64,000 nucleotides of DNA from a bacterium (GTDB lineage Bacteria > Auribacterota > UBA3054): assembly GCA_017616555.1 (NCBI GenBank), contig JAFZXZ010000032.1, positions 41,099 to 105,098 of the forward strand, read 5' to 3'. Both the position numbers and the translations under genes were made by a program. The notes under the pieces are model-generated. The model searched no databases. It was not told the DNA's origin and saw nothing but the letters and a program-made list of their open reading frames with translations. Positions 4,818 to 41,628 of this stretch are shown here, in pieces; position 1 is the stretch's first letter, and each line of letters begins with the position of its first letter.

Positions 4818-4894
4818 GGGCTTATAGCTCAGTTGGTTAGAGCGCGCGCTTGATAAGCGCGAGGTCGTTAGTTCAAGTCTAACTAGGCCCACCA
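4818..4894 (+). tRNA. tRNA-Ile (anticodon GAT)
   Basis: Cloverleaf readable by eye. Acceptor gggctta pairs with taggccc. D-arm agctcagttggttagagc. Anticodon stem cgcgc/gcgcg with loop ttGATaa. T-arm ggttcaagtc-like. The 3' CCA is encoded. Confidence 0.93.
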
Positions 4895-4934: not shown

Positions 4935-5010
4935 GGGGAATTAACTCAGCTGGTAGAGTGCCTGCTTTGCAAGCAGGATGTCACCGGTTCGAGTCCGGTA
5001 TTCTCCACCA
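4935..5010 (+). tRNA. tRNA-Ala (anticodon TGC)
   Basis: Acceptor ggggaat pairs with attctcc and includes the G3:U70 alanine identity pair. Anticodon stem cctgc/gcagg with loop ttTGCaa. T-arm ccggttcgagtccgg. The 3' CCA is encoded. Confidence 0.93.
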
Positions 5011-7106: not shown

Positions 7107-7449
7107 GGAGATTCGTCCGGCAGTCGCCCTTCTTTGGAGGGGAGGAAAGTCCGGACTCCTGCATGCGAAACGCCGTGGGAAACCGCGGGACGCCACAAGC
7201 GGACGGATAGCGCCACAGAAAATTACCGCCGGGCAACCGGTAAGGGTGAAAAGGCGGTGTAAGAGACCACCGCCGGTCGCGGCAACGCGCCGGGCATAGG
7301 CAAGCCCCGTTTGGAGCAAGATCGTATAGGGCGCGCGGAGGCAACTCCGGGAAAGCATGTCTTCCCAGTCGCACCGGGTAGATCGCGTCAGTTGAATGAC
7401 TGCCTGAGTCGCAAGACAAGAACAGAATCCGGCTTATGGGCGAATCTCC
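7107..7449 (+). ncRNA. rnpB: RNase P RNA, bacterial type A
   Basis: Universally conserved blocks are present: GAGGAAAGTCCGGAC, CCACAGAAAA, GGTAAGGGTGAAA, GGTGTAAGAGACC and ACAGAATCCGGCTTAT. P1 closes with ggagattcgtcc (7107-) pairing to gggcgaatctcc (-7449), followed by a T-run. The ORFs listed across this span are spurious. Confidence 0.93.
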
Positions 7450-7460
7450 TTTTTTATTTT

Positions 7461-25078: not shown

Positions 25079-26536
25079 TTATTCTTGCGGTTGAGCGAAG
25101 GCTTTGTCAATCACTTCCTGCGGCACTTTTTCCGTGAAGGAACTAACGATAGGCACCACCGCGAAGGGGACGATGATGGAGATCATGGAGCAAAGCGTGG
25201 AAGGAAGAGGAGTAAGGGCGATCAAAACCATCTGCAAGCCCAGTCCGCAGATTATGCCGGACAAAGCGCCCGCTTTGGTCGTTCCTTTCCAGTAAAGGCC
25301 GAGGAGATAGGGAGCGATGAAGGCTCCGCCCACGGCGCCCCAGCTTAAGCTCATAAGGTCAACGATGAACTTGCTGTCGGAGTGGGCGATGATGTAAGAG
25401 AGAAGCAGGAATATGGCGCTCATGATGCGCATCAGAGTGACCGTGGTACCTTCGGAAGCTTCCTTGTTGACGATGCCCTTGTAGAAGTCGATGGTGACCG
25501 TCGAACTTGAGACCAAGACCAGAGAGGAAAGGGTGCTCATGGAAGCGGACAGAATTAAAAGCAGGAACAGAGCCATCAGGGGAGCCGGCAGCCAATCCTT
25601 CAGCATGATGGGGACCAGAGTGTCGTAAACGCCCTTGGCGTCGGGGAGCCCGGCCTTGAAGTAGAGGTGCGTCATGGCGCCGGTGAAGTAAGCCGCGCAG
25701 CCTATTATCATGGCGAAGATGGTGGTGATTATAGTGGCCTTGAAGATAACCTTCTCGTTCTTGATGGCGTAATATTTCTGGATCATCTGCGGAAGACCCC
25801 AAGGGGCGAACGAGGTCATCATCACGGCGGAAGCCAGCGTTATCCAGCCGAAGGTGGAAACGGGAGTGTGCTCAATTCTGGCGGCGGTGATGTTCTGGAA
25901 AACATTAGCCCAGCCGCCGCCCTTATTGGCCAGAAGGCACATGATCAGAATGGAGCCGGCCAGCATGATCATGCCCTGGATGAAGTCCGTAAGAGTCATG
26001 GCCAGGTACCCGCCCAGCATGAGGTAGATGGCGGCCACGCCGGTCATGAGCCACAAGGCCACTTCGTAGGGGATGTTGAAGTTTTCGACGAAAAGATAGC
26101 CCAAGCCTTTGTAAACGGAGGCGGAATAGGGGACAAGGAAAATGAAAATGATGATGGCGGCCAGCGGCTTCAAATACGGCGCCGCGTAGCGTTCGCAGAA
26201 GAAGCCCGGCATGGTCATGGCGCCGAGGTTCTGGGTCATACGGCGCGTTCTCTTCGCCAAAACGATCCAGGCCAAAAGCGCGCCGAAAATGGCGTTGCCG
26301 ACGCCGATAGACATGGCGGGATAGCCGAATTTCCAGCCTAAGCTTCCCGCGAAGCCGATGAAGATGACCGCGGAGAAATAGCTGGTTCCATAGGAGAAGG
26401 CCGAGATCCAGGGGCCGACGTTGCGGCCGCCCAGGAAGAAGTCCTCAAGGTTCTTGGTCCTGCGCATGGCGTAAACGCCAGTGGTGACCAGAAGAATAAT
26501 GAAGGCAACTAGAAGGATGGTTGTTAAGGATGACAT
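25079..26536 (-). CDS. Sodium:solute symporter family transporter
   Basis: About 13 predicted TM segments, SSF-like N-terminus (FFLGGRNVGPWISAFSYGTSYFSAVIFIG). It lies 3 nt downstream of the aryl-CoA ligase gene. Confidence 0.8.
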   Translation of the reverse strand: MSSLTTILLVAFIILLVTTGVYAMRRTKNLEDFFLGGRNVGPWISAFSYGTSYFSAVIFIGFAGSLGWKFGYPAMSIGVGNAIFGALLAWIVLAKRTRRMTQNLGAMTMPGFFCERYAAPYLKPLAAIIIFIFLVPYSASVYKGLGYLFVENFNIPYEVALWLMTGVAAIYLMLGGYLAMTLTDFIQGMIMLAGSILIMCLLANKGGGWANVFQNITAARIEHTPVSTFGWITLASAVMMTSFAPWGLPQMIQKYYAIKNEKVIFKATIITTIFAMIIGCAAYFTGAMTHLYFKAGLPDAKGVYDTLVPIMLKDWLPAPLMALFLLLILSASMSTLSSLVLVSSSTVTIDFYKGIVNKEASEGTTVTLMRIMSAIFLLLSYIIAHSDSKFIVDLMSLSWGAVGGAFIAPYLLGLYWKGTTKAGALSGIICGLGLQMVLIALTPLPSTLCSMISIIVPFAVVPIVSSFTEKVPQEVIDKAFAQPQE

Positions 26537-26539
26537 TTT

Positions 26540-27856
26540 TTATTTTTCCTTGGGTCGATTGTCGATTACGCGGGCTGCTTTGCCGGTGAAGCGCTCGATG
26601 CTTTGCGGCTGGACCAGGTCCACTTCGAAGTGGATGCCGGTATAGGAGCGGATGGTCTCCTCCAGCCTGTTTTTAAGCATCTGCATCTCGCTCATCTTGT
26701 CGGAGAAGAAGGCCGGGGCCATCTCCACTTTCACGACCGAGCGGTCGAGGGAGCCGGGGCGGTCCAATACGATGAGGAAGTTCGGCGTGACGTCTTTGCA
26801 CTGCAGAAGCGCTTCTTCCACCTGGCTGGGGAAGACGTTGACGCCTCTTATTATCAGCATGTCGTCGGAACGGCCTTTAATTCTGCTCATCCTCTTGGTC
26901 GTTCTGCCGCAGGGGCAGTCAGTGTCGCTGATAAGGTAGGCCAGGTCTCTGGTGCGGTACCTTATCATAGGCATGGCTTCCTTGTTGAGGGCGGTGATGA
27001 CCAGCTCTCCCAGCTGTCCGTCCGGAACGGGCTCCAGCGTTTCGGGATCCAGGCATTCCACCAGGAAGTAATCCTCCTGGATGTGCATGCCGGTGTGATA
27101 GACGCACTCTCCGCTGATGCCAGGCCCCAGGACTTCCGAGAGACCGTAGTTGTTGCAGGTGTTGACCTGGAGCTTATCCTCGATGTAGAGGCGCATGTCT
27201 TCGGTCCAGGGTTCGCTGCCAAGGAAGGCCACTTTCAGATTCAAGCTTTCCCTTGGGATCTTCTCCTCTTCCATGTACTCGATCAAGCGCAGTGCGTAGG
27301 TCGGAGTGCAGACCAAAAGCTCCGGCTGAAGGTCCTGCAGGAGCGTGAACTGGCGCCTGGTGTTGCCGCTGGCGGCGGGGATGATGGAGGAGCCGATCTT
27401 CTCAAGGCCGTAGTGCAATCCGAAGCCGCCGGTGAAGAGGCCGTAGCCGAAACTGATCTGGGCGGTGTTGCCGGGGCGGGCGCCGCCAGCGTACAAAAAG
27501 CGGGCCACAAGGTCGGACCACATCTCAAGGTCGTTTTTCGTGTAGGCGACGAAGGTCGGTTTGCCCGTCGTGCCAGAGGAGCCGTGGAAACGCAAAACCT
27601 TTTCCTTGGGCACAGCCAGCAGTCCCAGGGGATAGTTGTTGCGCATGTCGGTCTTGGTCGTGAAGGGCAGATGCCTTACGTCGGCTACGCTCTTTATGTC
27701 CTCAGGCCCTATGCCGATCTCCTTGAACTTCTTTGCGTAGAAGGGGACGTTCATCACCTGCTTGACAGTCGCTCTCAGTCTCTGGACCTGAATGTTCTCG
27801 ATCTCGTCTCTGGATAAGCATTCCGCCTTATCCCAAATCTTGTTTTCCAGTTTCAT
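26540..27856 (-). CDS. Phenylacetate-CoA ligase family protein (PaaK / coenzyme F390 synthetase-like), copy 1
   Basis: Adenylate-forming motifs HGSSGTTGKPT, YGLFTGGFGLHYG, YGLSEVLGPG, YRTRD, DDMLIIRGVNVFPSQVE. Confidence 0.85.
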   Translation of the reverse strand: MKLENKIWDKAECLSRDEIENIQVQRLRATVKQVMNVPFYAKKFKEIGIGPEDIKSVADVRHLPFTTKTDMRNNYPLGLLAVPKEKVLRFHGSSGTTGKPTFVAYTKNDLEMWSDLVARFLYAGGARPGNTAQISFGYGLFTGGFGLHYGLEKIGSSIIPAASGNTRRQFTLLQDLQPELLVCTPTYALRLIEYMEEEKIPRESLNLKVAFLGSEPWTEDMRLYIEDKLQVNTCNNYGLSEVLGPGISGECVYHTGMHIQEDYFLVECLDPETLEPVPDGQLGELVITALNKEAMPMIRYRTRDLAYLISDTDCPCGRTTKRMSRIKGRSDDMLIIRGVNVFPSQVEEALLQCKDVTPNFLIVLDRPGSLDRSVVKVEMAPAFFSDKMSEMQMLKNRLEETIRSYTGIHFEVDLVQPQSIERFTGKAARVIDNRPKEK

Positions 27857-27866
27857 TTTTCCAGTC

Positions 27867-28295
27867 TTATTTATTGGTGTTGAAAAGTTCGTGCGAACTC
27901 AATACGCAGAATCCGTTGGATATAAGTTTCTGATAGGCCTTTTCCGTATTGTCCACGCGGTAGAGGAAGATGTGGCGGTTGGCGAAGGCGTAAACGTACT
28001 CCACGTTGATGCCCTCTTTGTTCAGGATCTCGGCGACCTGCGCCAATCTTCCGGGCTGGTTGTCGATCCTGACCGCCAGGACATCGGCGATGTTGACGAT
28101 GAAGCCCTCTTTCTCCAATAGGGCCTTCGAGGATTCCGCATCCTCGACGATCAGACGCAGGATGCCGAACTGGGCGGTGTCGGCCAGAGTCAGGGTGTAG
28201 ATGTTTATTCCGGCGTCGCCCAAAGCCTTGCAGATGCTATAGACGTGTCCGGGCTTGTTTTCCAAAAAGAGGGAAAGCTGTTTTACGGTTTCCAT
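27867..28295 (-). CDS. ACT domain-containing protein, copy 1
   Basis: Two ACT-like halves (LSLFLENKPGHVYSICKALGDAGINI ; IDNQPGRLAQVAEILNKEGINVEY). 142 aa. Confidence 0.75.
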   Translation of the reverse strand: METVKQLSLFLENKPGHVYSICKALGDAGINIYTLTLADTAQFGILRLIVEDAESSKALLEKEGFIVNIADVLAVRIDNQPGRLAQVAEILNKEGINVEYVYAFANRHIFLYRVDNTEKAYQKLISNGFCVLSSHELFNTNK

Positions 28296-28403
28296 TTATT
28301 TATGCTCCTTTGGTTAGAGAAAATAGTTTCTAATCTTATATGATAACATACCGGGCAAGAGGGTGGTCCTGCCCGGTATGAAAAGCGCGGAAAAACGGAG
28401 CGC

Positions 28404-29717
28404 TTATTTGTTGCGCAGGTCGGTGACGCGCTTGGCTTTGCCCATGGAGCGCTCTAGGCTTCCCGGCTCCACGGGAGTGACCGTGACGGCCAGGCCGATG
28501 ATGCTCTTAATGGCGTTGCCGATCTTTTTCTGGATGACTTCGATGGAGCGGATGGTGTCGCCGAAGAGCTCGGCGGAAAGCTCCACCTGCACTTCCAGGG
28601 TGTCGAGGTCGCCGTGGCGCCTGACGATGATGTGGTAGTGCGGCTGGACGCCCGGGATCGTCAGGAGCGCCGCTTCGATCTGGCTCGGGAAGACGTTGAC
28701 GCCTCTTATTATCAGCATGTCGTCGTTCCTGTGGTCGATGCGTTTTATTCTCCTGATGGTGCGGCCGCATTCGCAAGTCCCCTTGACGATGACGGAGATG
28801 TCCCTGGTGCGGTACCTTATCATGGGCATGCCGAACTTGTGCAAAGTAGTGATGACCAGTTCGCCTTCCGTGCCGTCAGGCAGCGCTTCGCCGGTCTCGG
28901 GGTCGATGATCTCGGGATAATAGAGGTCTTCGAACATGTGCAATCCCGTCCTGGCAGGGCAGTCCATGGCCACGCCCGGTCCACTGATCTCGGTCAGCCC
29001 GTAGATGTCCCAGGCCTTGATGCCGGATTCTTCCTCGATCCTCTGGCGCATCTCGTTGGTCCAGGGCTCGGCGCCGAAGATGCCGTTACGAAGTTTCATC
29101 TTCTTGAAGTCGTAGCCCAGCTGCTTGGCTTTTTCGATGATGTGCAGGAAGTAGCTTGGCGTGCAGCTTATGCAGGTCACGCCGAAGTCGCTCATCAGTT
29201 TTATCTGGCGCTCAGTGTTGCCGCTGGAGATGGGCAATACGGTGGCGCCCAGTCCTTCGGCGCCGTAATGCAACCCCATGCCGCCGGTGAAGAGGCCGTA
29301 GCCGTAGGCATTCTGGATGATGTCGCCGCTTCCTATGCCGGCGATCATGAGGGCGCGCATGGTGGCTTCCTGCCAGCAGGCCACGTCTTCCCTGGTATAG
29401 GCGATGACGATGGGGCTTCCGGTGGTGCCGGAACTGGCCTGCAGTCTGATGATGTCATCCATGGGGACGGACAAGAGGCCGAAGGGATAAGTGTCCCTGA
29501 GGTCAACTTTCTTGAAGAAGGGCAGCTTCTGGATGTCCTTCATCTCCTTGATGCAGGTGTCGTCAAGACCTTTCTCCTGCATGCGGGATCTGAAGAGCGC
29601 CTGGTTTTTGTAGGCGTGGGAAACTATGTTTTTAAGCCTTGCGAGCTGGATGGACTCCAGTTCGTCGCGGCTCATGAAATCTTTTTGCGCTAAGGCTTGT
29701 AGGGCGGATTTTTCCAT
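28404..29717 (-). CDS. Phenylacetate-CoA ligase family protein, copy 2 (diverged paralog)
   Basis: QASSGTTGSPI, YGLFTGGMGLHYG, YGLTEISGPG, YRTRD, DDMLIIRGVNVFPSQIE. Confidence 0.85.
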   Translation of the reverse strand: MEKSALQALAQKDFMSRDELESIQLARLKNIVSHAYKNQALFRSRMQEKGLDDTCIKEMKDIQKLPFFKKVDLRDTYPFGLLSVPMDDIIRLQASSGTTGSPIVIAYTREDVACWQEATMRALMIAGIGSGDIIQNAYGYGLFTGGMGLHYGAEGLGATVLPISSGNTERQIKLMSDFGVTCISCTPSYFLHIIEKAKQLGYDFKKMKLRNGIFGAEPWTNEMRQRIEEESGIKAWDIYGLTEISGPGVAMDCPARTGLHMFEDLYYPEIIDPETGEALPDGTEGELVITTLHKFGMPMIRYRTRDISVIVKGTCECGRTIRRIKRIDHRNDDMLIIRGVNVFPSQIEAALLTIPGVQPHYHIIVRRHGDLDTLEVQVELSAELFGDTIRSIEVIQKKIGNAIKSIIGLAVTVTPVEPGSLERSMGKAKRVTDLRNK

Positions 29718-29732
29718 ATTGTTATTTTTGTT

Positions 29733-30161
29733 TTAGTTTTCGTCGGAGAAGAGTTCCTCGTGGGAGAGAAGGGTGAAGCCGTTCTCGCTCAGGATCTGGA
29801 AGGCTTTTTCGTTGTCGCTCACCCTGAGGAGGAAGATGCGGCGCATCGCGAAAGCGTAAGCGTATTCCAAGTTGATGTCAAGTGAGGAGAGCAGTTCGTA
29901 GATCTTGGCCAAAACTCCCGGACGGTTGTCTATTCTGACCGCCAGAAGCTCGGTTATGTTAACTATCACTCCTCCTTTTTTAAGCAGCTCGCCGGCCGCT
30001 TCGGGTTTCTCTACGATCAAACGCAGAAGCCCGAACTGATTCGTGTCGGCCAAGGATAGCGTAAAGATGTTTATGCCGGCGTCGCCTAAAGTCTTGCAGA
30101 TGTTGTAAGCGTGCCCCGGCTTGTTCTCCAGAAAAACGGAAAGCTGTTTTGCAGTTTTCAT
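29733..30161 (-). CDS. ACT domain-containing protein, copy 2
   Basis: Same length (142 aa) as copy 1 and clearly homologous to it (LSVFLENKPGHAYNICKTLGDAGINI ; IDNRPGVLAKIYELLSSLDINLEY). Confidence 0.75.
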   Translation of the reverse strand: MKTAKQLSVFLENKPGHAYNICKTLGDAGINIFTLSLADTNQFGLLRLIVEKPEAAGELLKKGGVIVNITELLAVRIDNRPGVLAKIYELLSSLDINLEYAYAFAMRRIFLLRVSDNEKAFQILSENGFTLLSHEELFSDEN

Positions 30162-30301
30162 TTGTTTGTCTCCATAATGGGAAGCGGTGAACTTTATACT
30201 TCCTTTCGTTGTCGGAATGTATTTTCTATAAGTTTAGCAAAAAACTTCCGGAAAAATCCACTGCTTAATCTTTTTTCCGACCCGCCTTTCTCCCTAAGCC
30301 C

Positions 30302-30330
30302 TTGCAAAATGAAAATGAAAGTGCTACCAT
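30302..30330 (+). promoter_or_regulatory. Putative sigma-70 promoter of the aromatic supraoperon leader (TTGCAA-17-TACCAT)
   Basis: TTGCAA at 30302-30307, a 17-nt spacer, and TACCAT at 30325-30330. It would start transcription about 20-30 nt before the leader ATG at 30363. Confidence 0.35.
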
Positions 30331-30362
30331 ATTCGCAATCAATCACGGAAAACTGTCTCTTA

Positions 30363-30437
30363 ATGAAAATCAATTTCGGCTATTGGTTCTACTTTTATTA
30401 CACCGAGCTTTCTCAAGCTGGGGGAACCTTGTCGTAG
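30363..30437 (+). CDS. Candidate attenuator leader peptide MKINFGYWFYFYYTELSQAGGTLS (24 aa)
   Basis: Read directly: atg aaa atc aat ttc ggc tat tgg ttc tac ttt tat tac acc ... tag. Eight of nine consecutive codons are Phe/Tyr/Trp. It lies between a putative promoter and a strong terminator upstream of the DAHP synthase gene. The SD is weak (ggaaaa). Confidence 0.55.
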   Translation: MKINFGYWFYFYYTELSQAGGTLS

Positions 30438-30464
30438 TTGAATAAAAGTGGATTCCGAATACGA

Positions 30465-30503
30465 AAAGAGCCTGGCTTGAGCAAAGCCAGGCTCTTTCTT
30501 TTT
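30465..30503 (+). terminator. Intrinsic terminator within the 5' leader of the aromatic supraoperon (candidate attenuator)
   Basis: A 12-14 bp stem, aaagagcctggc(tt) 30465-30478 with (aa)gccaggctcttt 30484-30497, followed by cttttt. It sits only about 35 nt upstream of the ATG at 30537. Segment 30412-30422 (ctcaagctggg) can pair instead with 30471-30481 (cctggcttgag) as an antiterminator. Confidence 0.7.
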
Positions 30504-30536
30504 AAGCAAATAATAATCAACAAATAAGGAAAAACT

Positions 30537-31544
30537 ATGATAATCATCATCAAGCAAGGCGCCCAGAAAAGCCAGGTGGACAACCTCATCAATTGGCTGA
30601 AGGCCCAGAACATCGATCCGCACATCTCCGTCGGTTCCCATGAAACTCTTATTGGCTGCGTCGGCGACGTGGCGCATCTCGACATCGACCTTGTCTCCGC
30701 CCTCGACGTGGTGGCCAGCGTGCAGCGCGTGGGCGACCCCTACAAGGCCGCCAACCGCAAGTTTCATCCGGACGACTCCATAATAGACTGCGGCGGCGTG
30801 CTTATCGGCGGCGGTAATTTTCAGGTCATCGCCGGCCCCTGCAGCGTGGAGAGCGAGGAGCAGATAATAGAGGTGGCCAAGGCGGTCAAAGCCGCCGGCG
30901 CGACGCTTCTAAGGGGCGGCGCCTTCAAGCCCAGGACGAGCCCATACTCCTTCCAGGGCTTGGGCGTGGAAGGCTTGAAGATGCTTCTGGCGGCCAAGAA
31001 GGAAACAGGCCTTCCTATCGTCACAGAGCTTATGAACTTCTCCCAGTTCGAATATTTCAACGACGTGGACGTCATCCAGATCGGCGCCCGCAATATGCAG
31101 AACTTCGACATCCTCAAAGAAGTCGGCCACAACACCAAGAAGCCCATCCTTCTGAAGAGAGGACTTTCCTCCACTTTGCAGGAACTACTTATGAGCGCGG
31201 AATACATCATGGCGTCCGGCAACCCCAACGTCATCCTCTGCGAACGCGGCATCAGGACCTTCGAGACGGCCACCAGGAACACCATCGACCTTTCCGTGGT
31301 GCCGCTTCTCCACCAGTTCTCGCACCTTCCGGTGGTGGTCGATCCCAGCCACGCCACCGGCGTCGCCAGGCTCGTGCATCCGGTGGCGGTGGCCGCCACG
31401 GCCATCGGCGCGGACGGCCTCATAATAGAAGTCCACAACGATCCGCCCAAGGCCAAGTGCGACGGCGCCCAGAGCCAGACGCCCGCCATGTTCGCCGAGA
31501 CTATGAAGGCGATCAAAGCGGTCAGGCCCTACGCTTGCCGTTAA
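30537..31544 (+). CDS. aroF: 3-deoxy-7-phosphoheptulonate (DAHP) synthase, type I-beta with an N-terminal ferredoxin-like regulatory domain
   Basis: N-terminal ~70-aa ACT/FL-like domain (MIIIIKQGAQKSQVDNLINWLK). Core blocks: IAGPCSVES, LRGGAFKPRTSPYSFQG, IQIGARNMQNF, ILCERGIRTFE, VVDPSHATG. Confidence 0.9.
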   Translation: MIIIIKQGAQKSQVDNLINWLKAQNIDPHISVGSHETLIGCVGDVAHLDIDLVSALDVVASVQRVGDPYKAANRKFHPDDSIIDCGGVLIGGGNFQVIAGPCSVESEEQIIEVAKAVKAAGATLLRGGAFKPRTSPYSFQGLGVEGLKMLLAAKKETGLPIVTELMNFSQFEYFNDVDVIQIGARNMQNFDILKEVGHNTKKPILLKRGLSSTLQELLMSAEYIMASGNPNVILCERGIRTFETATRNTIDLSVVPLLHQFSHLPVVVDPSHATGVARLVHPVAVAATAIGADGLIIEVHNDPPKAKCDGAQSQTPAMFAETMKAIKAVRPYACR

Positions 31545-31587
31545 GGGTATAATATAAATACTTTGAGATAAACGAAAAAGAAGACCT

Positions 31588-32733
31588 ATGGACAAGGAAA
31601 ACATCAGAAACGAGATCGACGCCATCGACGACAAAATAGTCGATCTTTATTTGAAGCGCTTCGAGTGCGTCAAAAAAGTCGCTGAAGTGAAGCAGCAGGA
31701 AAATCTGCCTGTCAGCGATCCGGCAAGGGAAAGGGAGATCCTGAACAGACTGTCCCTCGCCGCCGGACCGGAATACGAAAACGAGATCGCCATGCTCTTC
31801 AGTACGCTCTTCAGTCTTTCCCGCGCCAAGGAACGCAAGTTCATTACGAAGGAAAGCAAACTGGAAGGCGAGATCAAAAGAGCCGTGGCCATGGCTCCCT
31901 CTGAGTTCCCCTCCCACGCCACGGTGGCCTGCCAGGGGACGGAAGGCGCTTTCAGTCAGCAGGCGGCCTCCACCTTCTTCAAGTTTCCCGCCATTCTCTT
32001 CTTCAACTCCTTTGCCGACATCTTCAGCGCCGTGGAGAAAGGCATGTGCCAGTACGGCGTGCTGCCAATAGAAAACTCCTCGGCCGGCTCCGTCACCACG
32101 GTCTATGACAACATGCTGCGTCACGACTTCAGGATCGTCAAGGCCTGCAAGCTGCATGTCTCCCACGTCCTTCTGGCCAAGAAAGGCGTCAGGATGAGCG
32201 ACATCAAGGAAATAAAGAGCCATCCCCAGGCGCTCTCCCAGTGCTCGAAGTTTTTACTTAACATGCGGAACGTCAAGCAGACGCCCACCGCCAACACGGC
32301 TCTGGCCGCCAGGGAACTCAGTGAGAGCGGACGCACGGACCAGGCGGTCATCGCCTCCAGAAAGTGCGCCGAGCTTTACAATCTCGAAATTATAAAGGAC
32401 GAGATCTGCGACACGCCCTCCAACTTCACCCGCTTCATCTGCATATCCAGGGAACTGGAGATCTACAAGGACGCCTCCAAGATCTCCCTAATCATGACGC
32501 TGCCCCACAAGCCGGGCTCTTTGGCCAATATTCTGGCAAGGTTCTCCTCCATCGGGCTGAATCTCACCAAATTGGAATCGCGTCCCATTCCCGGCATGGA
32601 ATTCGAGTTCCGCTTCACCTTCGAGTTCGAATCCAAGCCCAACGACCCGGGCGCCATCAAGCTTTTATCCGAACTCTCCACCGACCCGGACATCGAGCAG
32701 TTCACTTTCTTAGGAGCGTATGCAGAGATCTGA
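31588..32733 (+). CDS. pheA: Bifunctional chorismate mutase / prephenate dehydratase (P-protein)
   Basis: CM domain (IRNEIDAIDDKIVDLYLKRFECVKKVAEVK), PDT domain (VACQGTEGAFSQQAA..YGVLPIENSSAGSV), C-terminal ACT (SLIMTLPHKPGSLANILARFSSIGLNLTKLESRP). Confidence 0.9.
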   Translation: MDKENIRNEIDAIDDKIVDLYLKRFECVKKVAEVKQQENLPVSDPAREREILNRLSLAAGPEYENEIAMLFSTLFSLSRAKERKFITKESKLEGEIKRAVAMAPSEFPSHATVACQGTEGAFSQQAASTFFKFPAILFFNSFADIFSAVEKGMCQYGVLPIENSSAGSVTTVYDNMLRHDFRIVKACKLHVSHVLLAKKGVRMSDIKEIKSHPQALSQCSKFLLNMRNVKQTPTANTALAARELSESGRTDQAVIASRKCAELYNLEIIKDEICDTPSNFTRFICISRELEIYKDASKISLIMTLPHKPGSLANILARFSSIGLNLTKLESRPIPGMEFEFRFTFEFESKPNDPGAIKLLSELSTDPDIEQFTFLGAYAEI

Positions 32734-33520
32734 TCTCAAAGAAATCGCCATCGTTGGCCTCGGCCTCATCGGCGGCTCTTTTTTCAAGGCCGCCCAAAAG
32801 GCCGGCTACAACGTCAGGGGCATCGACAGGAACGATCCTGTAGAGGTCTCGAATTCCGACCTCGTCATCATCGCTCTTCACCCGACGCTTACCGTAAAAT
32901 GGCTCCTTGAGCACGCCGCCGATCTGAAAAAAGGCGCGCTTACTATCGACGTCTGCGGCGTAAAAAGCGCCGTCATAAAAGAGCTCGCTCCCAAACTGAA
33001 CGGCAGCTTCACCTTCATCGGCGGACACCCCATGGCCGGGAAGGAAGTCAGTGGTTTCGAGAATTCCGATGCGGAGCTATTCCGAGGCGCTTCCATGATC
33101 CTGACGCCCTTCCCGCAGGATCAAAAGATTGCGGAAGACATTGTACCTTTCTTCACCGAACTGGGCTTCAAGGAAGTCGTTTTCACCACGCCCGAAGATC
33201 ACGACAAAAGGATCGCCTACACCAGCCAGCTCTGCCACCTTGTTTCCTCCGCCTACCTGAGGGACGAGCTTGCCCTTAAGCGCTCCGGCTTTTCCGCCGG
33301 CAGTTTCAGGGACCTGTCAAGAGTTGGCGCGCCCGACCCCGAGCTCTGGTCGGAATTGTTCCTCATGAACAAAACGGAGCTTCTGCCGGTTCTCAAGAGA
33401 ATGATCAAAAGGCTCACGGATTTCCAGACCGCCATCGCAAACGATGACAGGGAGAGCCTGGTCTCCCAGCTCGCGGAAGGCCAAGTTATAAAAGAAAAAC
33501 TGCAAGGGGAGGAAAAATAA
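32720..33520 (+). CDS. tyrA: Prephenate dehydrogenase
   Basis: Rossmann motif IAIVGLGLIGGSF, GGHPMAGKE, SQLCHLVS. Overlaps the pheA end by 14 nt. Confidence 0.85.
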   Translation: MQRSDLKEIAIVGLGLIGGSFFKAAQKAGYNVRGIDRNDPVEVSNSDLVIIALHPTLTVKWLLEHAADLKKGALTIDVCGVKSAVIKELAPKLNGSFTFIGGHPMAGKEVSGFENSDAELFRGASMILTPFPQDQKIAEDIVPFFTELGFKEVVFTTPEDHDKRIAYTSQLCHLVSSAYLRDELALKRSGFSAGSFRDLSRVGAPDPELWSELFLMNKTELLPVLKRMIKRLTDFQTAIANDDRESLVSQLAEGQVIKEKLQGEEK

Positions 33521-33521
33521 A

Positions 33522-34901
33522 ATGTCAGCAATCTTTCTTTACGGACCTCCCGCCAGCGGGAAGACCACCGTTGGCAGAAATCTCTCGCTCAGTTTAGGCA
33601 GGCCGTTTTTCGATCTCGACGAAGTGATCGAGGAAAAAGTTGGCAAAAAAATTCCTGCCATTTTCGAAGAAGGCGGCGAAGCGCTTTTCCGCAAGATCGA
33701 AAAAGAAACGCTCTTTGAGCTTACCCGAAAAGAGAACTTCAACAGCAGCGTGGTCTCTTTGGGCGGCGGCACGCTCCTCGATCCCGAGAACCGCATGCTG
33801 GCGGAAAGAGTAGGCCGCGTCTGGCTTCTGGAAGCACCTTCTCCTGAAGAATTGGAAAAGCGTTTTCAAAGGAACCCCAATGCCCGCCCGCTTGGCAACA
33901 AGGCCGAGGAAAGAAAAGAGCATTACGCTTCCTTCAAAAGCAGGATTGCCAAAACTTTCCTGCTTCCCACATCCCTTGTCATCGTCGGCGAAGGCCTTGG
34001 CCCCCTTTGTGATTTTGCCAAACTTGTGATCGCCGACACCAACGCCGCCAACTGCCAGCCGGAAGCTTTGAAAAACACCGCGCTGGAACTCATCCCTTCC
34101 GGCGAAGAGATAAAGAATATCACCACCATTGAAAAGATCTGGGGTCTTCTAAATGACCACGCCATCGGCAGGAAGGACATAATCGCTTCCTTCGGCGGGG
34201 GAGTGACCAGCGATCTAGTAGGTTTCGCCGCCGCCACCTGGATGCGCGGAATCGATTGGATCAATTTCCCAACGACCTTGCTTGCCATGGTGGACGCTTC
34301 CACCGGCGGCAAGACGGGCTGCGACCTCGCTATCGGAAAGAACCTGGTCGGCGCTTTCCATTCTCCCAGGCTTATTCTTATCGATGCCGACCGTTTGAAT
34401 ACTCTTCCACTTAAGGAACTGAAAGTCGGCAAGGCGGAAATGATCAAGCACGCGCTCATCAGCGGGAGCGAGCCGAAATTCTCCGAGATCCCGACCGCCA
34501 GGGAGATCGCCGACAATCTGAAAGTGAAAGTCGATATCGTCAGGGAAGATCCCTTCGAGAGAAGCGGAAAACGCATTCTTTTAAACTGCGGCCACACCGT
34601 CGGCCACGCCCTGGAACTCATGAGCAACTTTACGATAAGCCACGGCGAAGCGGTGGCCATAGGCTGCGTCGAGGAAGCACGTATCGCCCAAAGAATGGGC
34701 CTGGCCAAAGATAGTTTCCCCGAAGAACTGGCGGAGGTCTTCTCCGCCCACGGCCTTCCCACCAAGCTTCCCGAAGGCATAGTTCTGGACGACCTGAAGC
34801 TTATCATGCGCCGCGACAAAAAGAGATCCGGCAACACCGTTACTTTCTCCCTGCCCTGCGCCTGGGGCAGCGTCATAGCCACCAAGATCTCACTGGAGTA
34901 A
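33522..34901 (+). CDS. aroK/aroB: Fused shikimate kinase / 3-dehydroquinate synthase
   Basis: The N-terminal ~150 aa has the P-loop IFLYGPPASGKTTVGRNLS and LGGGTLLDPEN. The rest is DHQS: FGGGVTSDLVGFAAATWMRGIDWINFPTTLLAMVDASTGGKTG, NCGHTVGHALE, HGEAVAIG. Confidence 0.88.
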   Translation: MSAIFLYGPPASGKTTVGRNLSLSLGRPFFDLDEVIEEKVGKKIPAIFEEGGEALFRKIEKETLFELTRKENFNSSVVSLGGGTLLDPENRMLAERVGRVWLLEAPSPEELEKRFQRNPNARPLGNKAEERKEHYASFKSRIAKTFLLPTSLVIVGEGLGPLCDFAKLVIADTNAANCQPEALKNTALELIPSGEEIKNITTIEKIWGLLNDHAIGRKDIIASFGGGVTSDLVGFAAATWMRGIDWINFPTTLLAMVDASTGGKTGCDLAIGKNLVGAFHSPRLILIDADRLNTLPLKELKVGKAEMIKHALISGSEPKFSEIPTAREIADNLKVKVDIVREDPFERSGKRILLNCGHTVGHALELMSNFTISHGEAVAIGCVEEARIAQRMGLAKDSFPEELAEVFSAHGLPTKLPEGIVLDDLKLIMRRDKKRSGNTVTFSLPCAWGSVIATKISLE

Positions 34902-34904
34902 GCG

Positions 34905-36344
34905 ATGCCGTCCCTGATCTGCCTTACCATAACTGCCAAAACGCTCACGGAAGCGCAGAGGATAGCCGATGCCAACGCACCTTTTGTTGACCTAATTGAG
35001 CTAAGGGCGGATCATTTATCGAAAAACGAATATGCTTCCATAAAAGATTTTCCCAAGCAAGTAAAAAAGCCCTGCATCCTGACAGTCCGCAGAAAAAATG
35101 ACGGCGGAGCGTTCGAGGGCAGCGAAACGGAAAGGTTAGAGCTTCTTGAAAACTTAAGCGCTTTCGCCTATGTGGACCTGGAATCCGATCTCTCCGTTCC
35201 TGAACTTGAAGCTCTGGCCCATAAAAGCGGAGTAAGGATCATCAGAAGCGCCCATTACTTTGATCCTCAGGAAGCGGAGATCGTAAAAACCATCGACACC
35301 ATTTCCAGAAGCGAAAGCGAGATTCCCAAGATCGCTTTCCTTCCCAAGGACCTTACAACTGTTGCCAACATCTTCATGCTTTCCAAAGAGCTCAAGACAA
35401 AGGACAGGATCATCTGCGTCATGGGAAAACTTGGCGGCGTATCGAGAATTCTGGCTGACAGGCTCGGCTCATTTCTTACTTTCACTTCCCCCAAGGAACT
35501 TCTCAAAAACACTTCCGCCATCGGCCACATTGATCCCGAAACGCTGCTCGACGTTTACGATTTCAAGAACATCAATAACAACACCGCTCTCTGCGGCGTG
35601 ACCGGATTTCCCTTGAACGTCACCTCCAGTCCGGAAGTGCACAGAAGTTTTTACAAAGAGGAAAACCGCAACGCCGTCATGCTTCCCGTTCCGGCGGAAA
35701 ATATAAAAGAGGCGCTAATTTTTGCCGAGGCCTTAAAATTCAAAGGCCTGGCCGTCACCATTCCCCACAAGGAAACGCTCCTCAACTATCTTGACGAAGC
35801 GGACGAAGCGGTCAAAGAGATCGGCGCCGCCAACACGGTGGTTTTCAAAGAAGGCAAGAGGATCGGTCACAACACCGACTGGATCGGCTTTACAAAAGCG
35901 CTGAAGCATTTCCTCAAGACCGACAGCATAGAAGGGAAGCGCGTGGCCGTCCTTGGTTCCGGCGGCGCCGCCAAAGCCATCGCCTACGCTCTGCATAAAG
36001 AAAAAGCAGTGGCGACTATCTTTGCCAGGAATGTTGAGAAAGCCAAAGCTATAGCGGACAAATATGGCTTTACTTTCGCAAAACTAACAGACCTCACAAG
36101 CGACTTTGATCCCGACATCATCGTACAGTGCACTTCTGTTGGTTTGCAAGGTCAAAGCGAAACGGAAAACGATCCTATCCCACAGTATGAATTCACTGGC
36201 AAAGAAGCTCTTTACGATATCATCTACAAACCGGAAGTCACTCCCATTATGGCGCGCGCCAATAATAAGGGCTGTCTTACGGAAAACGGCTTCAGCATGC
36301 TCATAGAGCAGGCCAGGGAACAGAACAGACTTTTCTTCACATAA
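34905..36344 (+). CDS. aroD/aroE: Fused 3-dehydroquinate dehydratase (type I) / shikimate 5-dehydrogenase
   Basis: The N-terminal half is type I DHQase-like (LIELRADHL.., ILTVRRKNDGG, IPKIAF). The C-terminal half is AroE: VTIPHKE, GAANTV, HNTDWIGF, VLGSGGAAKAIAYAL. Confidence 0.85.
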   Translation: MPSLICLTITAKTLTEAQRIADANAPFVDLIELRADHLSKNEYASIKDFPKQVKKPCILTVRRKNDGGAFEGSETERLELLENLSAFAYVDLESDLSVPELEALAHKSGVRIIRSAHYFDPQEAEIVKTIDTISRSESEIPKIAFLPKDLTTVANIFMLSKELKTKDRIICVMGKLGGVSRILADRLGSFLTFTSPKELLKNTSAIGHIDPETLLDVYDFKNINNNTALCGVTGFPLNVTSSPEVHRSFYKEENRNAVMLPVPAENIKEALIFAEALKFKGLAVTIPHKETLLNYLDEADEAVKEIGAANTVVFKEGKRIGHNTDWIGFTKALKHFLKTDSIEGKRVAVLGSGGAAKAIAYALHKEKAVATIFARNVEKAKAIADKYGFTFAKLTDLTSDFDPDIIVQCTSVGLQGQSETENDPIPQYEFTGKEALYDIIYKPEVTPIMARANNKGCLTENGFSMLIEQAREQNRLFFT

Positions 36345-36362
36345 AAACCACCGATCACGTTT

Positions 36363-37379
36363 ATGTCCTCCACTTACGGCAAAAATCTTAAAGTGACGCT
36401 TTTCGGCGAATCCCATGGGCCTGCCATCGGCTGCGTTCTGGACGGCTTTCCCGCTAACTTCACACCCGACCTGGAAAAAGTCAAAGCCTTCATGGCAAGA
36501 AGGGCTCCCGGCTCTCAGCCAGGCTCCACCCAAAGATGTGAATCCGACGCTTTCGAGATCCTCTCAGGCCTCTTCAACGAGAAGACGTGCGGCACGCCTA
36601 TCACGGCTGTCATCAAAAACAGCGACGCTCATTCCAAGGATTACTCCAAATTGAGCGACCTTATGAGGCCCGGTCACGCCGATTACCCCATGAACGTCAA
36701 GACGGAAGGCGCCAACGACTATCGCGGCGGCGGACACTCTTCCGGCCGCATCATGGCCCCGGCTTGTTTCGCGGGAGCGTTGGCTATCCAGTACCTTGAA
36801 AGCAAAGGCATAAAAATAAAAGGCAGGATCGTTTCCATCGGCGCTCAAAAGAACGAGCCAAACGCAAATGATATTTTAAGCCCGGAAGCCAAGGCCGTGA
36901 TCGAAGCAGCCAGAGCGGAAGGGGACAGCGTGGGCGGCGTAATTGAGTGCGAGATAATGGGACTGCCTGTAGGCCTTGGCGAACCGATTTTCGAGGGAGT
37001 TGAGAACAGAATAGCCCAGGCTGTCTTCGGTATTCCGGCGGTCAAAGGAATTGAATTCGGCAGCGGTTTTTCCAGCACTACCTTAAAAGGCTCAGAAAAC
37101 AACGACGCTTTCACCGTTAAAGACGGAAAGATAGAAACGGCAACTAACAATCACGGCGGCTCTCTAGGCGGTATGACCAGCGGCATGCCAATTGTTTTCC
37201 GCGCAGCAGTGAAGCCTACGCCTTCCATCTCTAAGCCACAAAAAAGCGTTTCGCTTTCCAAGCAGACGGAGGAAGAACTTGTTATTGAAGGCCGCCATGA
37301 CGCCTGCATCGTTCCCAGAGCGCTTCCCGTAGTGGAAGCCATGGCCGCTATCGCCGCACTCGACCTGCTTCTTGATTGA
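36363..37379 (+). CDS. aroC: Chorismate synthase
   Basis: TLFGESHGPAIGCVLDG, MARRAPG, RPGHADY, GGGHSSGR, GDSVGGVIEC, GGSLGGMTSGMPIVFRAAVKPTPSI, GRHDACIVPRA. Confidence 0.92.
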   Translation: MSSTYGKNLKVTLFGESHGPAIGCVLDGFPANFTPDLEKVKAFMARRAPGSQPGSTQRCESDAFEILSGLFNEKTCGTPITAVIKNSDAHSKDYSKLSDLMRPGHADYPMNVKTEGANDYRGGGHSSGRIMAPACFAGALAIQYLESKGIKIKGRIVSIGAQKNEPNANDILSPEAKAVIEAARAEGDSVGGVIECEIMGLPVGLGEPIFEGVENRIAQAVFGIPAVKGIEFGSGFSSTTLKGSENNDAFTVKDGKIETATNNHGGSLGGMTSGMPIVFRAAVKPTPSISKPQKSVSLSKQTEEELVIEGRHDACIVPRALPVVEAMAAIAALDLLLD

Positions 37380-38467
37380 TCATGTCTCTTACGCTTCCAA
37401 CAGGCAAAAGAAAAGGCTCCATCACGCCGCCTTTTTCCAAATCCCACCTTCACCGTCTTTTGATAGCGGACTTCCTAGGCGGGAACTTCCAGCGTCTGGC
37501 TCTCAGCCAGACGGATCCGGAAGATATTGCCGCCACCAAGCGCTGCCTCCTTGCCCTGAAGGAAGACGATCTGAAACCAACTCTGGACTGCGGTGAATCC
37601 GGCTCCACCTTGCGCTTTTTGAAGCCTGTCGCAGCCGCCCTGGGTAAGAACCCCACCTATGTCACGAAAGGCCGTCTTTCGAAGCGCCCGGGGATCGATT
37701 ACGAAAAACTTGAGCCTGGCCTTTTCGAACTTCCAGGCAACGTCTCCTCGCAGTTCGCCACAGGGCTTCTTTTTGCCCTGCCTCTTCTCAACAAAGATTC
37801 TGAGATTAGATTCACCACGCCTTTGGAATCCAGAGGCTACGTTGACCTCACATTGCAAGTCTTAAAAGACAGCAATATCAAGATAGAGGAAACAGAAACC
37901 GGCTTCCTCGTTCCCGGCAACCAGACTTACATCGCGCCCGTAAACATCGAGCCTGAACGCGACTGGTCCGGCGCCTCCTTCTTCCTTACTATGAACTATC
38001 TCGGCTCCGAGATAGAGATCAAGGGTCTCAACAACGCTTCTCTTCAGCCCGACCGAGCCATTGCAAGTCTGCTCAACAACATTGGCAAAACCATCGACGT
38101 CTCCCAGTGCCCGGATATTTTCCCGCCTCTGGCTGTGGCCGCCGCCGGCACCGGTGCCAAAACGACTTTCATCGGCATAAAAAGACTAAGGCTAAAAGAA
38201 TCCGACCGTGTCGCCACCACCCAAGCGCTTCTCAAAACAATCGGCATCAACTGCCAAATAACAGAAGACGCTTTTACCGTGGAAGGCACGGACAAGCCCT
38301 TCCAAGTCAAAGAGGAAATAAAGACTTTCGGCGACCACCGTATCGCTATGTCCGCCGCCGCAGTCGCCACCAACGCCCAAAGCCCAATCATCATTGACAA
38401 CCCATCCTGCTGCGCCAAATCCTACCCCTCATTCTTCGAGGACTTCCTCGCTTTGACGCACATTTAA
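37376..38467 (+). CDS. aroA: 3-phosphoshikimate 1-carboxyvinyltransferase (EPSP synthase), unusually compact (~360 aa)
   Basis: PFSKSHLHRLLI (cf. PGSKS..R), CGESGSTLRFL (cf. LGNAGTAMR), GNVSSQFATGLLFALPL, ESRGYVDLTL, LRLKESDR, FGDHRIAMSAA, CCAKSYPSFFEDF. Starts at TTG 37376, overlapping the aroC stop, or at ATG 37382. Confidence 0.85.
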   Translation: MIMSLTLPTGKRKGSITPPFSKSHLHRLLIADFLGGNFQRLALSQTDPEDIAATKRCLLALKEDDLKPTLDCGESGSTLRFLKPVAAALGKNPTYVTKGRLSKRPGIDYEKLEPGLFELPGNVSSQFATGLLFALPLLNKDSEIRFTTPLESRGYVDLTLQVLKDSNIKIEETETGFLVPGNQTYIAPVNIEPERDWSGASFFLTMNYLGSEIEIKGLNNASLQPDRAIASLLNNIGKTIDVSQCPDIFPPLAVAAAGTGAKTTFIGIKRLRLKESDRVATTQALLKTIGINCQITEDAFTVEGTDKPFQVKEEIKTFGDHRIAMSAAAVATNAQSPIIIDNPSCCAKSYPSFFEDFLALTHI

Positions 38468-38508
38468 TACCGTTGTTAAAAACCTACCGAATTCGGTTGG
38501 GTTAAAAA

Positions 38509-38532
38509 GGGGTCGAAATCGCCCCTGTTTTT
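38509..38532 (+). terminator. Rho-independent terminator after aroA
   Basis: ggggtcg aaat cgcccc, followed by tgttttt. Confidence 0.6.
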
Positions 38533-38580
38533 AGTATTCGTGGCGGAATAATGGTCGGTTGGAGGATAATGCGCTGGCTA

Positions 38581-40952: not shown

Positions 40953-41628
40953 TCTTGAAGCGAACGGGGCGGAACTGATGCCCCGGGAAAAATTAATGAA
41001 GTACGGCATCGAGGAATTGAATCTTCCCGAACTTCTGGCCCTGGTCTTGGGAACCGGCTACGGAGGAAAAAACGTCATGCAATTGAGCAACGAGATCGTA
41101 ATGGATTACGGTGCGGCGGGACTGAAAGATTTAAAGGAGATCAATTCCCTGAGGGAAGTGACCGGGATGCCTTTCGTAAAGAGCGCTATGCTTTTAGCTA
41201 GCCTTGAACTGGGCAGGCGCCTTTGCGGGAGGGCTGACGACGAGGAGATGATCCGCGTTACTCAGCCGGGCGACGTCTATCCTCTGACCAGGGACATGTG
41301 GGACTTGGAGCAGGAGCAGCTGAGGGGAATATACCTTAACACTGCTTCGAAGGTGATAGGCACGAAGGTCCTGACGGTCGGTACGGCGCGGCAGAGCCTT
41401 TCGGATCCGGCGACTGTCTTCCGGCCGGCCTTGAAGATGGGAGCCAGCTCGGTTATTTTGGCGCACAACCATCCTTCCGGAGAGACCGTGCCGAGCAAGG
41501 CTGACGTGGCGGTGACAGAGGAGATCGCCTCCGCAGGAAAGATACTTCACATTAAGCTGCTTGACCATTTGATAGTCACAAGGTCCGGCTACACATCGCT
41601 GTTGGGAGCCGGCTTACTGAAAAATTGA
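40933..41628 (+). CDS. radC: RadC-family JAB-domain protein
   Basis: PREKLMKYGIEELNLPELLALVLGTG (HhH-like N-terminus) and the JAMM motif ILAHNHPSGETVPSKAD. An alternative start is the second Met (MPRE, near 40978). Confidence 0.85.
   Translation: MKRRAADLEANGAELMPREKLMKYGIEELNLPELLALVLGTGYGGKNVMQLSNEIVMDYGAAGLKDLKEINSLREVTGMPFVKSAMLLASLELGRRLCGRADDEEMIRVTQPGDVYPLTRDMWDLEQEQLRGIYLNTASKVIGTKVLTVGTARQSLSDPATVFRPALKMGASSVILAHNHPSGETVPSKADVAVTEEIASAGKILHIKLLDHLIVTRSGYTSLLGAGLLKN

Follow-up and report, generated by a model that had tools for sequence, protein, structure and literature searches.

A candidate leader-peptide attenuator upstream of a DAHP synthase supraoperon in rumen Kiritimatiellia and comparable leaders in other gut anaerobes

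Why should an intrinsic terminator stand only a few tens of nucleotides in front of a biosynthetic operon? The question is raised by positions 41,099 to 105,098 of contig JAFZXZ010000032.1 (assembly GCA_017616555.1), here called the window (64,000 nt), in which a short open reading frame (ORF) rich in aromatic codons and a terminator precede the gene for DAHP synthase (DAHPS). An original prediction, made from the letters alone, had read this arrangement as a ribosome-mediated attenuator of a shikimate/Phe/Tyr supraoperon. The reading is supported by a mini-ORF that is conserved, a terminator that covaries, an antiterminator specific to each lineage, and folds in which a ribosome footprint is masked. 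From sequence comparison and folding models we consider it highly probable that the element is a ribosome-mediated transcription attenuator of the DAHPS-pheA-tyrA-shikimate operon, one which would respond mainly to Phe and Tyr and which has one conserved Trp codon.

The leader ORF in the window and in related genomes

The gap upstream of the DAHPS gene measures 375 nt (30162-30536), as had been described, and it is AT-rich with a GC content of 36-41%. At the place where the original prediction had put it, the gap holds a 24-codon ORF that reads MKINFGYWFYFYYTELSQAGGTLS before its stop codon (Table 1). The claim that eight of nine consecutive codons are aromatic also stands, as codons 5-13 encode F G Y W F Y F Y Y. 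Among the 2461 small ORFs (8-60 aa, both strands) of the 64-kb window no other locus reaches at least seven aromatic residues out of nine, and the runner-up has six. The leader peptide had no entry in the protein database searched.

The host had been guessed to be a bacterium of the Planctomycetes-Verrucomicrobia-Chlamydiae (PVC) type, and this guess was borne out; the host group is rumen Kiritimatiellia, a class of the PVC group, and the closest genomes are metagenome-assembled genomes of rumen and gut Kiritimatiellia. The DAHPS identity is 98% to the nearest related locus (L001) and 82% to the next (L002). When relatives were checked for the same leader upstream of DAHPS an aromatic mini-ORF was found, and the 11 relatives that were analysed further have both a terminator and an alternative pairing. 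In total 16 Kiritimatiellia loci, whose DAHPS is 72-98% identical to that of the window, have an aromatic operon headed by a diverged aromatic mini-ORF. The gene that follows the leader is DAHPS in 11 of these loci, pheA in four and a trpB-like gene in one. An ATG-initiated mini-ORF with a run of Phe, Tyr and Trp codons lies 150-200 nt before DAHPS in L001, L002, L003, L005, L007, L008, L009, L011, L012, L017 and L081. In L010, L014, L084 and L086 the operon starts with pheA ahead of DAHPS, and there the leader stands before pheA. In L013 (103-237) the leader is found before a TrpB-like pyridoxal phosphate enzyme, followed by DAHPS, and it has two Trp codons (MNKIYTSWRWYYG...), which suggests that the codon content of the leader may track the content of the operon.

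The Kiritimatiellia leader peptides (for example MNGRFEFTWFYYFGYEVRSGFAHT, MNTWLKFDFYYYFDFMSEQGLAH, MNNQFYFWAGFYFAYRVRGV and MNNNRYFYFSFFYFAFTKRGVS) have a common composition; neither their sequence nor their length is conserved. Between the leader of the window and that of L001 the differences are K2N, I3F and Y13F, and the aromatic content is kept or raised. A Trp codon is present in 13/17 (76%) of the Kiritimatiellia leaders versus 17% of the other leaders described below. The leader had been said to sense all three aromatic amino acids; its codons are mostly those for Phe and Tyr, and Trp has a single codon only, although it recurs in the Kiritimatiellia leaders as just given. Over all loci the 82 unique leader peptides start with ATG in 80 cases and have K or N at position 2 in 51, while an ATG-initiated ORF spans the run in only 5 of 164 shifted frames.

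Two of the contigs with a DAHPS 74-75% identical to that of the window had been assigned to unexpected bins, L008 to 'Clostridium sp. CAG:138' and L015 to 'Methanomethylophilaceae archaeon'. The leader of L008 closely resembles that of the Kiritimatiellia-type L003, and both contigs are probably mis-binned.

Terminator, antiterminator and the proposed switch

The GC-rich hairpin with a U-run that had been noticed after the leader was also found in our analysis. The hairpin occupies 30465-30497, has 14 bp of which seven are G-C and an energy of -24.3 kcal/mol, and is followed by CTTTTT to 30503. It begins 27 nt past the leader stop codon, and the U-tract ends 33 nt before the DAHPS ATG (30537). 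We also considered a terminator serving an upstream gene and rejected it, because the upstream genes lie on the opposite strand and are transcribed away from the region. In all 12 Kiritimatiellia sequences (the 11 relatives and the window) the terminator starts 95-108 nt after the leader ATG. In the alignment of these 12 sequences 88% of the cells in the stem are paired and compensatory changes are seen in 10 of the 14 pairs; none of 500 shuffles reached the observed values, and slid controls fell to 30-50% paired. RNAalifold recovered the terminator stem independently, and only that stem.

The proposed pairing of 30412-30422 (region 2) with 30471-30481 (region 3) is the optimum found by RNAduplex, with 11 bp including 2 G-U and -18.0 kcal/mol. 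Region 2 of the Kiritimatiellia leaders is part of the ORF and precedes its stop codon by 0-12 nt. As the pairing register differs between lineages and RNAalifold recovered only the terminator, we used duplex energies computed for each sequence and set them against three controls, namely shuffles, pairings with non-cognate partners, and natural windows taken from the sequence itself. In 12/12 Kiritimatiellia leaders a segment that follows the last aromatic codon and precedes the stop codon pairs with the terminator 5' arm (-15.5 to -28 kcal/mol), and its sequence varies by lineage (CUCAAGCUGGG, GGCGGGGUUCUUC, GGAGCAGGGUC, GCCGGAGCGGG and GCGGGGUU). Tested against natural windows of their own locus all 12 duplexes have p<=0.17, and Fisher's method gives a combined p=4e-8 for 10 non-redundant lineages. 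The matrix of non-cognate partners is not clean, several lineages sharing a CCGGAGCGG/CCGCUCCGG core.

The transcript was then folded with a 30-nt ribosome footprint masked, either at full length or ending before the 3' arm of the terminator. In the truncated transcript of the window and with no ribosome, the aromatic codons are predicted to pair with the sequence that follows the stop codon, and only 2 of the 14 bases of the terminator 5' arm pair upstream; the 5' arm is thus left largely unpaired and the terminator can form. With a ribosome on any of codons 7-13, 11 of the 14 bases pair with 30412-22 to give the antiterminator, in agreement with the earlier idea that a ribosome stalled on the aromatic codons leaves this segment free. 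A ribosome at codon 21 leaves the 5' arm free of upstream pairing. For the 12 Kiritimatiellia sequences the predicted fraction of the 5' arm that is sequestered is 0.86 for a stalled ribosome, 0.51 for one at the stop codon and 0.56 for ribosome-free RNA; the stalled state differs from the two others with p=0.002 and 0.02, respectively (Wilcoxon). In 83 other leaders the corresponding fractions are 0.71, 0.47 and 0.54 (p about 1e-9 and 2e-8). We also compared the energies of the two structures in the full-length RNA, which folds with -50.5 kcal/mol, versus -36.8 kcal/mol when the antiterminator is enforced. Since the terminator is more stable at equilibrium the switch would have to be kinetic, and classical attenuators such as trp are likewise kinetic switches.

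We suggest the following course of events. The transcript would begin some 24 nt before the leader ATG, and the leader would be translated behind the advancing RNA polymerase. When Phe-, Tyr- or Trp-tRNA is scarce, the ribosome would stall on codons 5-13, the upstream stem would melt and 30412-22 would become free to pair with 30471-81 once this is made; the terminator 5' arm would then be unavailable and the polymerase would read through into the operon. When the aromatic tRNAs are charged, the ribosome would cross 30412-22 toward the stop codon, the 14-bp hairpin and the U-tract would form, and transcription would stop at about 30503. With no ribosome at all, 30412-22 would be held in the tip of the upstream stem, and the transcript would be expected to terminate in this case too. 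What the analysis shows is the sequence elements, the conservation and covariation seen in relatives, and how the RNA is predicted to fold; we infer the promoter, the translation of the ORF, the stalling and the regulatory outcome.

The putative promoter, found by our own scan, scores 8/12 plus the TG of an extended -10 box, which is under the threshold of the automated promoter scan. The sole match of the automated scan, at 30517-30544, overlaps the start of DAHPS and is at chance level (1 found, 0.9 expected). Most relatives have extended -10 boxes (TGnTAnnnT) 7-34 nt upstream of the leader ATG. In L002, L005, L007, L010, L013, L014 and L086 a strong box of this kind ends 7-11 nt before the ATG, and judged from this spacing the leader mRNA may be leaderless or nearly leaderless in these loci.

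Recurrence in other phyla, precedents and alternatives

Further loci outside the Kiritimatiellia (L018-L080 and L089-L160) show that the arrangement is not restricted to this class. An aromatic mini-ORF lies 150-250 nt upstream of a DAHPS homologue (62-68% identity) in 56/63 of the loci from Clostridia genomes, and the majority of the metagenome loci have one as well. Among the carriers are Clostridia of the Oscillospiraceae, Lachnospiraceae, Acutalibacteraceae and Ruminococcaceae and, in addition, a single Flexilinea (L049). Examples of Clostridial leaders are MNISDKFFYFYFYFSKK and MKSIFVFAYYYYFTMDS; the longer peptides of this kind appear in databases only as 'uncharacterised' or 'unknown'. 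A hairpin with a U-tract lies between ORF and gene in 96/96 unique leaders that score at least 6/9 aromatic, and altogether the arrangement recurs in more than 100 loci of three phyla. In the Clostridial type region 2 usually lies just past the stop codon.

As an nhmmer profile of the Kiritimatiellia leaders matched only Kiritimatiellia leaders and no Clostridial one, common descent of the two groups is neither shown nor excluded, and the sequences would also be compatible with repeated independent origin. Somewhat tentatively, and as a serious possibility rather than a settled preference, we propose that these leaders form one large uncatalogued class of Phe/Tyr(/Trp) attenuators before type I-beta (ferredoxin-like-domain) DAHPS operons of gut and rumen anaerobes, covering at least Kiritimatiellota, many Clostridial families and a Flexilinea (Chloroflexota). 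For Clostridia, accounts of aromatic pathway control usually centre on T-boxes and TRAP. If the proposal is true, leader-peptide attenuation and not T-box or TRAP would prevail in a large part of the gut Firmicutes as the control of the common aromatic pathway, and it would occur in the PVC group also. The T-box and TRAP systems of Firmicutes have the same target genes and, like the present element, a conditional terminator in the 5' leader that answers to amino-acid or tRNA-charging status; they differ in that no T-box or other RNA family was detected here and in that the predicted sensing element is a translated ORF.

We searched the Rfam families in several ways. In the region 29500-31500, with E-values up to 10 allowed, the only plus-strand match was the sub-threshold Phe_leader (RF01859) at 30362-30501, and neither a T-box nor a riboswitch was found. 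With 28.2 bits (E=0.046) this match, a weak likeness that speaks for an attenuator, falls below the gathering score of 55, and for this reason we do not count the element as a member of the Rfam family. At gathering scores no leader family was found in the whole window or in 20 related loci, and with E-values up to 0.5 no family matched the leaders of 4 related loci. Minus-strand matches at 30454-30558 (MicC, tp2, Thr_leader and others; 21-30 bits) were rejected, as they coincide with the palindromic terminator and the A/T-rich stretches beside it and are likely artefacts of the hairpin and the U-run.

The layout resembles pheL/pheA and trpL/trp of E. coli, which have an ORF with a run of regulatory codons, a terminator, a mutually exclusive antiterminator with its 5' strand directly 3' of these codons, and a protective upstream stem such as is predicted for the window though not consistently for its relatives. 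However, pheL senses Phe only and controls pheA only, and region 2 of trpL lies after the stop codon, a layout shared by the Clostridial leaders and not by those of the Kiritimatiellia, where it lies inside the ORF. The original prediction knew of no description of a leader that senses all three aromatic amino acids before a common-pathway operon; for the idea of a mixed aromatic leader in such a place there are two precedents. The closest experimental case is aroR of C. glutamicum, with a Phe-Tyr-Phe leader before the aroF (DAHP synthase) operon; ribosome-mediated attenuation in response to Phe limitation is reported to have been shown by experiment (Neshat et al. 2014, as summarised in PMC11802643). 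It shares with the present element a mixed aromatic leader peptide ahead of an operon that starts with DAHP synthase. On the other hand it belongs to Actinomycetota, a sequence relationship is not to be expected, and it has three regulatory codons and no Trp, whereas the Kiritimatiellia leader has eight aromatic codons including one for Trp and heads a seven-gene supraoperon including pheA and tyrA. The closest predicted case is uORFC-13-1, an upstream ORF with Phe codons that is directly followed by an intrinsic terminator and occurs before aroF alone; the speed at which Phe is incorporated was proposed to govern its attenuation (Breaker laboratory, RNA Biol 2021, PMC8632094). It was reported only from Acholeplasma and unidentified environmental sequences, with 24 representatives and 'at least one' Phe codon (PMC8632094). 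The likeness to our leaders, a Phe-codon upstream ORF and a terminator before aroF, was judged by its verbal description only; its model did not appear among the Rfam matches, and its environmental members might include some of our Clostridial leaders. A survey from 2010 knew leader peptides only from Proteobacteria, from Actinobacteria and, in the form of a His leader, from bacilli (PMC2965389). In the literature searched, the coverage of which is incomplete, we found no report of leader-peptide attenuation for Verrucomicrobia, Kiritimatiellia or Clostridial aro operons.

Several observations weigh against a ribosome-mediated switch. Taken alone the antiterminator duplex of the window is only marginally above chance (reached by 17/500 mononucleotide shuffles; p=0.09 versus natural windows), and it convinces only because the pairing is conserved in relatives. 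In a MAFFT alignment its register differs between lineages and no single set of columns holds it, so that covariation of the antiterminator cannot be scored formally by columns; the sequences compared are also phylogenetically related, which makes the p-values optimistic. The upstream '1:2' stem is not consistently predicted in relatives, many of which, including the 98%-identical L001, already form the antiterminator in folds with no ribosome, and this protective stem is the least secure element of the model. The leader of the window has no clear Shine-Dalgarno sequence, though only 19/36 of the presumed genes in the window have one. It had further been claimed that a ribosome reaching the stop codon would cover the antiterminator segment. 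This could be kept for codon 21, where the segment is covered, but at the stop codon itself only about 3/11 bases of region 2 are covered in the window, and the minimum-energy fold still pairs the 5' arm with a segment far upstream, so that the outcome is ambiguous. As the ribosome at the stop codon covers so little, the occlusion would have to fall in the ribosome transit of codons 17-21, or else the upstream stem would have to form again. The far-upstream partner in the stop-codon fold is codons 5-9 (UUCGGCUAUUGGUUCU, 30375-30390), which pair with 30466-30480 in the terminator 5' arm; in this folding model the pairing may be a second long-range antiterminator or an artefact.

These weak points leave room for other explanations. 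A trans-acting factor, be it a TRAP-like RNA-binding protein, a tRNA or a small molecule, might control the terminator through the UUY/UAY run or the leader structure, with the ORF being incidental. The contiguous U-rich triplets could serve as a protein-binding repeat, and neither the unclear Shine-Dalgarno sequence nor the weakly significant antiterminator of the window would then be surprising. We nevertheless regard such a factor as very improbable, since no T-box, riboswitch or other Rfam match appeared at lenient E-values in the window and 24 related loci, the run is in frame with an ATG in nearly all unique leaders and seldom in the shifted frames, the K/N bias at position 2 is like that of translated genes, and F, Y and W interchange freely as the nucleotide sequence diverges. 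That only the aromatic composition is conserved, and neither the length nor the sequence of the peptide, is hard to reconcile with a functional small hydrophobic peptide or a short small RNA that ends at a constitutive terminator, the operon being expressed by read-through or from a separate promoter. Longer homologues are indeed called 'uncharacterised' proteins in databases, and attenuator-derived RNAs and peptides are reported to act in trans elsewhere (S. meliloti rnTrpL/peTrpL). The promoter-like match at 30517-30544 would suit a separate promoter, yet it is no better than chance. Moreover the element is always followed directly by aromatic biosynthesis genes and stays with whichever gene comes first in the operon, and the conserved mutually exclusive pairing would be left unexplained, so we hold this explanation to be very unlikely as well.

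It might finally be argued that an ORF and a hairpin have come together by chance in a long intergenic region, whose low GC content favours UUY/UAY codons and whose single-sequence antiterminator has a modest p-value. The uniqueness of the run among the small ORFs of the window, the recurrence across three phyla and a terminator behind every one of the unique leaders scored speak against this, and we consider that the comparison of sequences effectively refutes it; its probability seems negligible to us.

The attenuator mechanism as such is textbook and changes no concept, and the value of the ribosome-mediated reading lies in annotation and scope. It would give an uncultured rumen member of the Kiritimatiellia a concrete, predicted regulatory element that can be tested and extend leader-peptide attenuation to the PVC group, for which the searched literature held no earlier report. 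The more interesting by-product is the apparently uncatalogued spread across phyla of such leaders before this type of DAHPS. A covariance or peptide model of these leaders would fill an annotation gap, and metatranscriptomic read-through at such sites could report aromatic amino-acid limitation in situ in gut communities.

The regulated operon and its surroundings

The features of the region are collected in Table 1. The content of the shikimate/Phe/Tyr supraoperon and the N-terminal ferredoxin-like domain of DAHPS had both been proposed before, and both agree with the Pfam matches.

Table 1. Position of the leader elements, the aromatic operon and the divergent genes in the window.
Feature	Position	Strand	Details	Basis
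Putative sigma-70-type promoter	30302-30330	+	-35 TTGCAA (30302-07), 17-nt spacer, extended -10 TGcTACCAT (30322-30)	Own scan
Leader-peptide ORF	30363-30437	+	24 codons and stop, MKINFGYWFYFYYTELSQAGGTLS	Translation; equivalent ORFs in relatives
Regulatory codon run	30375-30401	+	F5 Y7 W8 F9 Y10 F11 Y12 Y13 (3 Phe, 4 Tyr, 1 Trp)	
'1:2' anti-antiterminator	30375-30465	+	Long imperfect stem without ribosome; aromatic codons with post-stop region, region 2 at apex	Predicted
Region 2, antiterminator 5' strand	30412-30422	+	Inside leader ORF (codons 17-20), CUCAAGCUGGG	
Intrinsic terminator (attenuator)	30465-30503	+	14-bp stem, 5-nt loop, CUUUUU tail	Covariation; RNAalifold
Region 3, antiterminator 3' strand	30471-30481	+	8 nt of terminator 5' arm and 3 loop nt, CCUGGCUUGAG	
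Shine-Dalgarno-like sequence of DAHP synthase gene	30526-30530	+	AAGGA	3' of terminator, not sequestered by it
Regulated operon	30537-38467	+	Seven genes	Pfam
DAHP synthase	30537-31544	+	N-terminal ferredoxin-like domain (PF18152 + PF00793)	Pfam
Chorismate mutase-prephenate dehydratase (CM-PDT)	31588-32733	+		Pfam
Prephenate dehydrogenase (PDH)	32720-33520	+		Pfam
Shikimate kinase-DHQ synthase (SK-DHQS)	33522-34901	+		Pfam
DHQase-shikimate dehydrogenase (DHQase-SDH)	34905-36344	+		Pfam
Chorismate synthase	36363-37379	+		Pfam
EPSP synthase	37376-38467	+		Pfam
Terminator-like hairpin after EPSP synthase gene	38508-38535	+	Hairpin 38508-38526, then GTTTTT	
ACT-domain-pair protein	29733-30161	-		
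PaaK-like aryl-acetate/AMP ligase	28404-29717	-		
Second ACT pair	27867-28295	-		
Second ligase	26540-27856	-		
Sodium:solute symporter	25079-26536	-		

The ferredoxin-like domain of Thermotoga-type DAHPS mediates feedback inhibition by Tyr and Phe, and by analogy a dual control of the pathway, allosteric and transcriptional, is plausible here. The hairpin after the EPSP synthase gene is probably the end of the operon.

The EPSP synthase ORF is short, with 363 aa and a TTG start overlapping the stop codon of chorismate synthase. It matches the Pfam model in two stretches, of which the top-scoring one covers profile positions 298-416 of 417, i.e. the C-terminal part. The orthologous ORF in L014 is likewise short (382 aa stop-to-stop).

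A minus-strand cluster (25079-30161), made up of two tandem pairs of an ACT-pair protein and a ligase with a transporter, diverges from the aromatic operon and uses the same 375-nt intergenic region. We speculate that this cluster might serve the uptake and activation of phenylacetate-type acids, an alternative rumen route to aromatic amino acids. Elsewhere the window also holds a bacterial RNase P RNA (class A, 208.8 bits) at 7108-7452 and two tRNA genes at 4818-4891 and 4935-5007.

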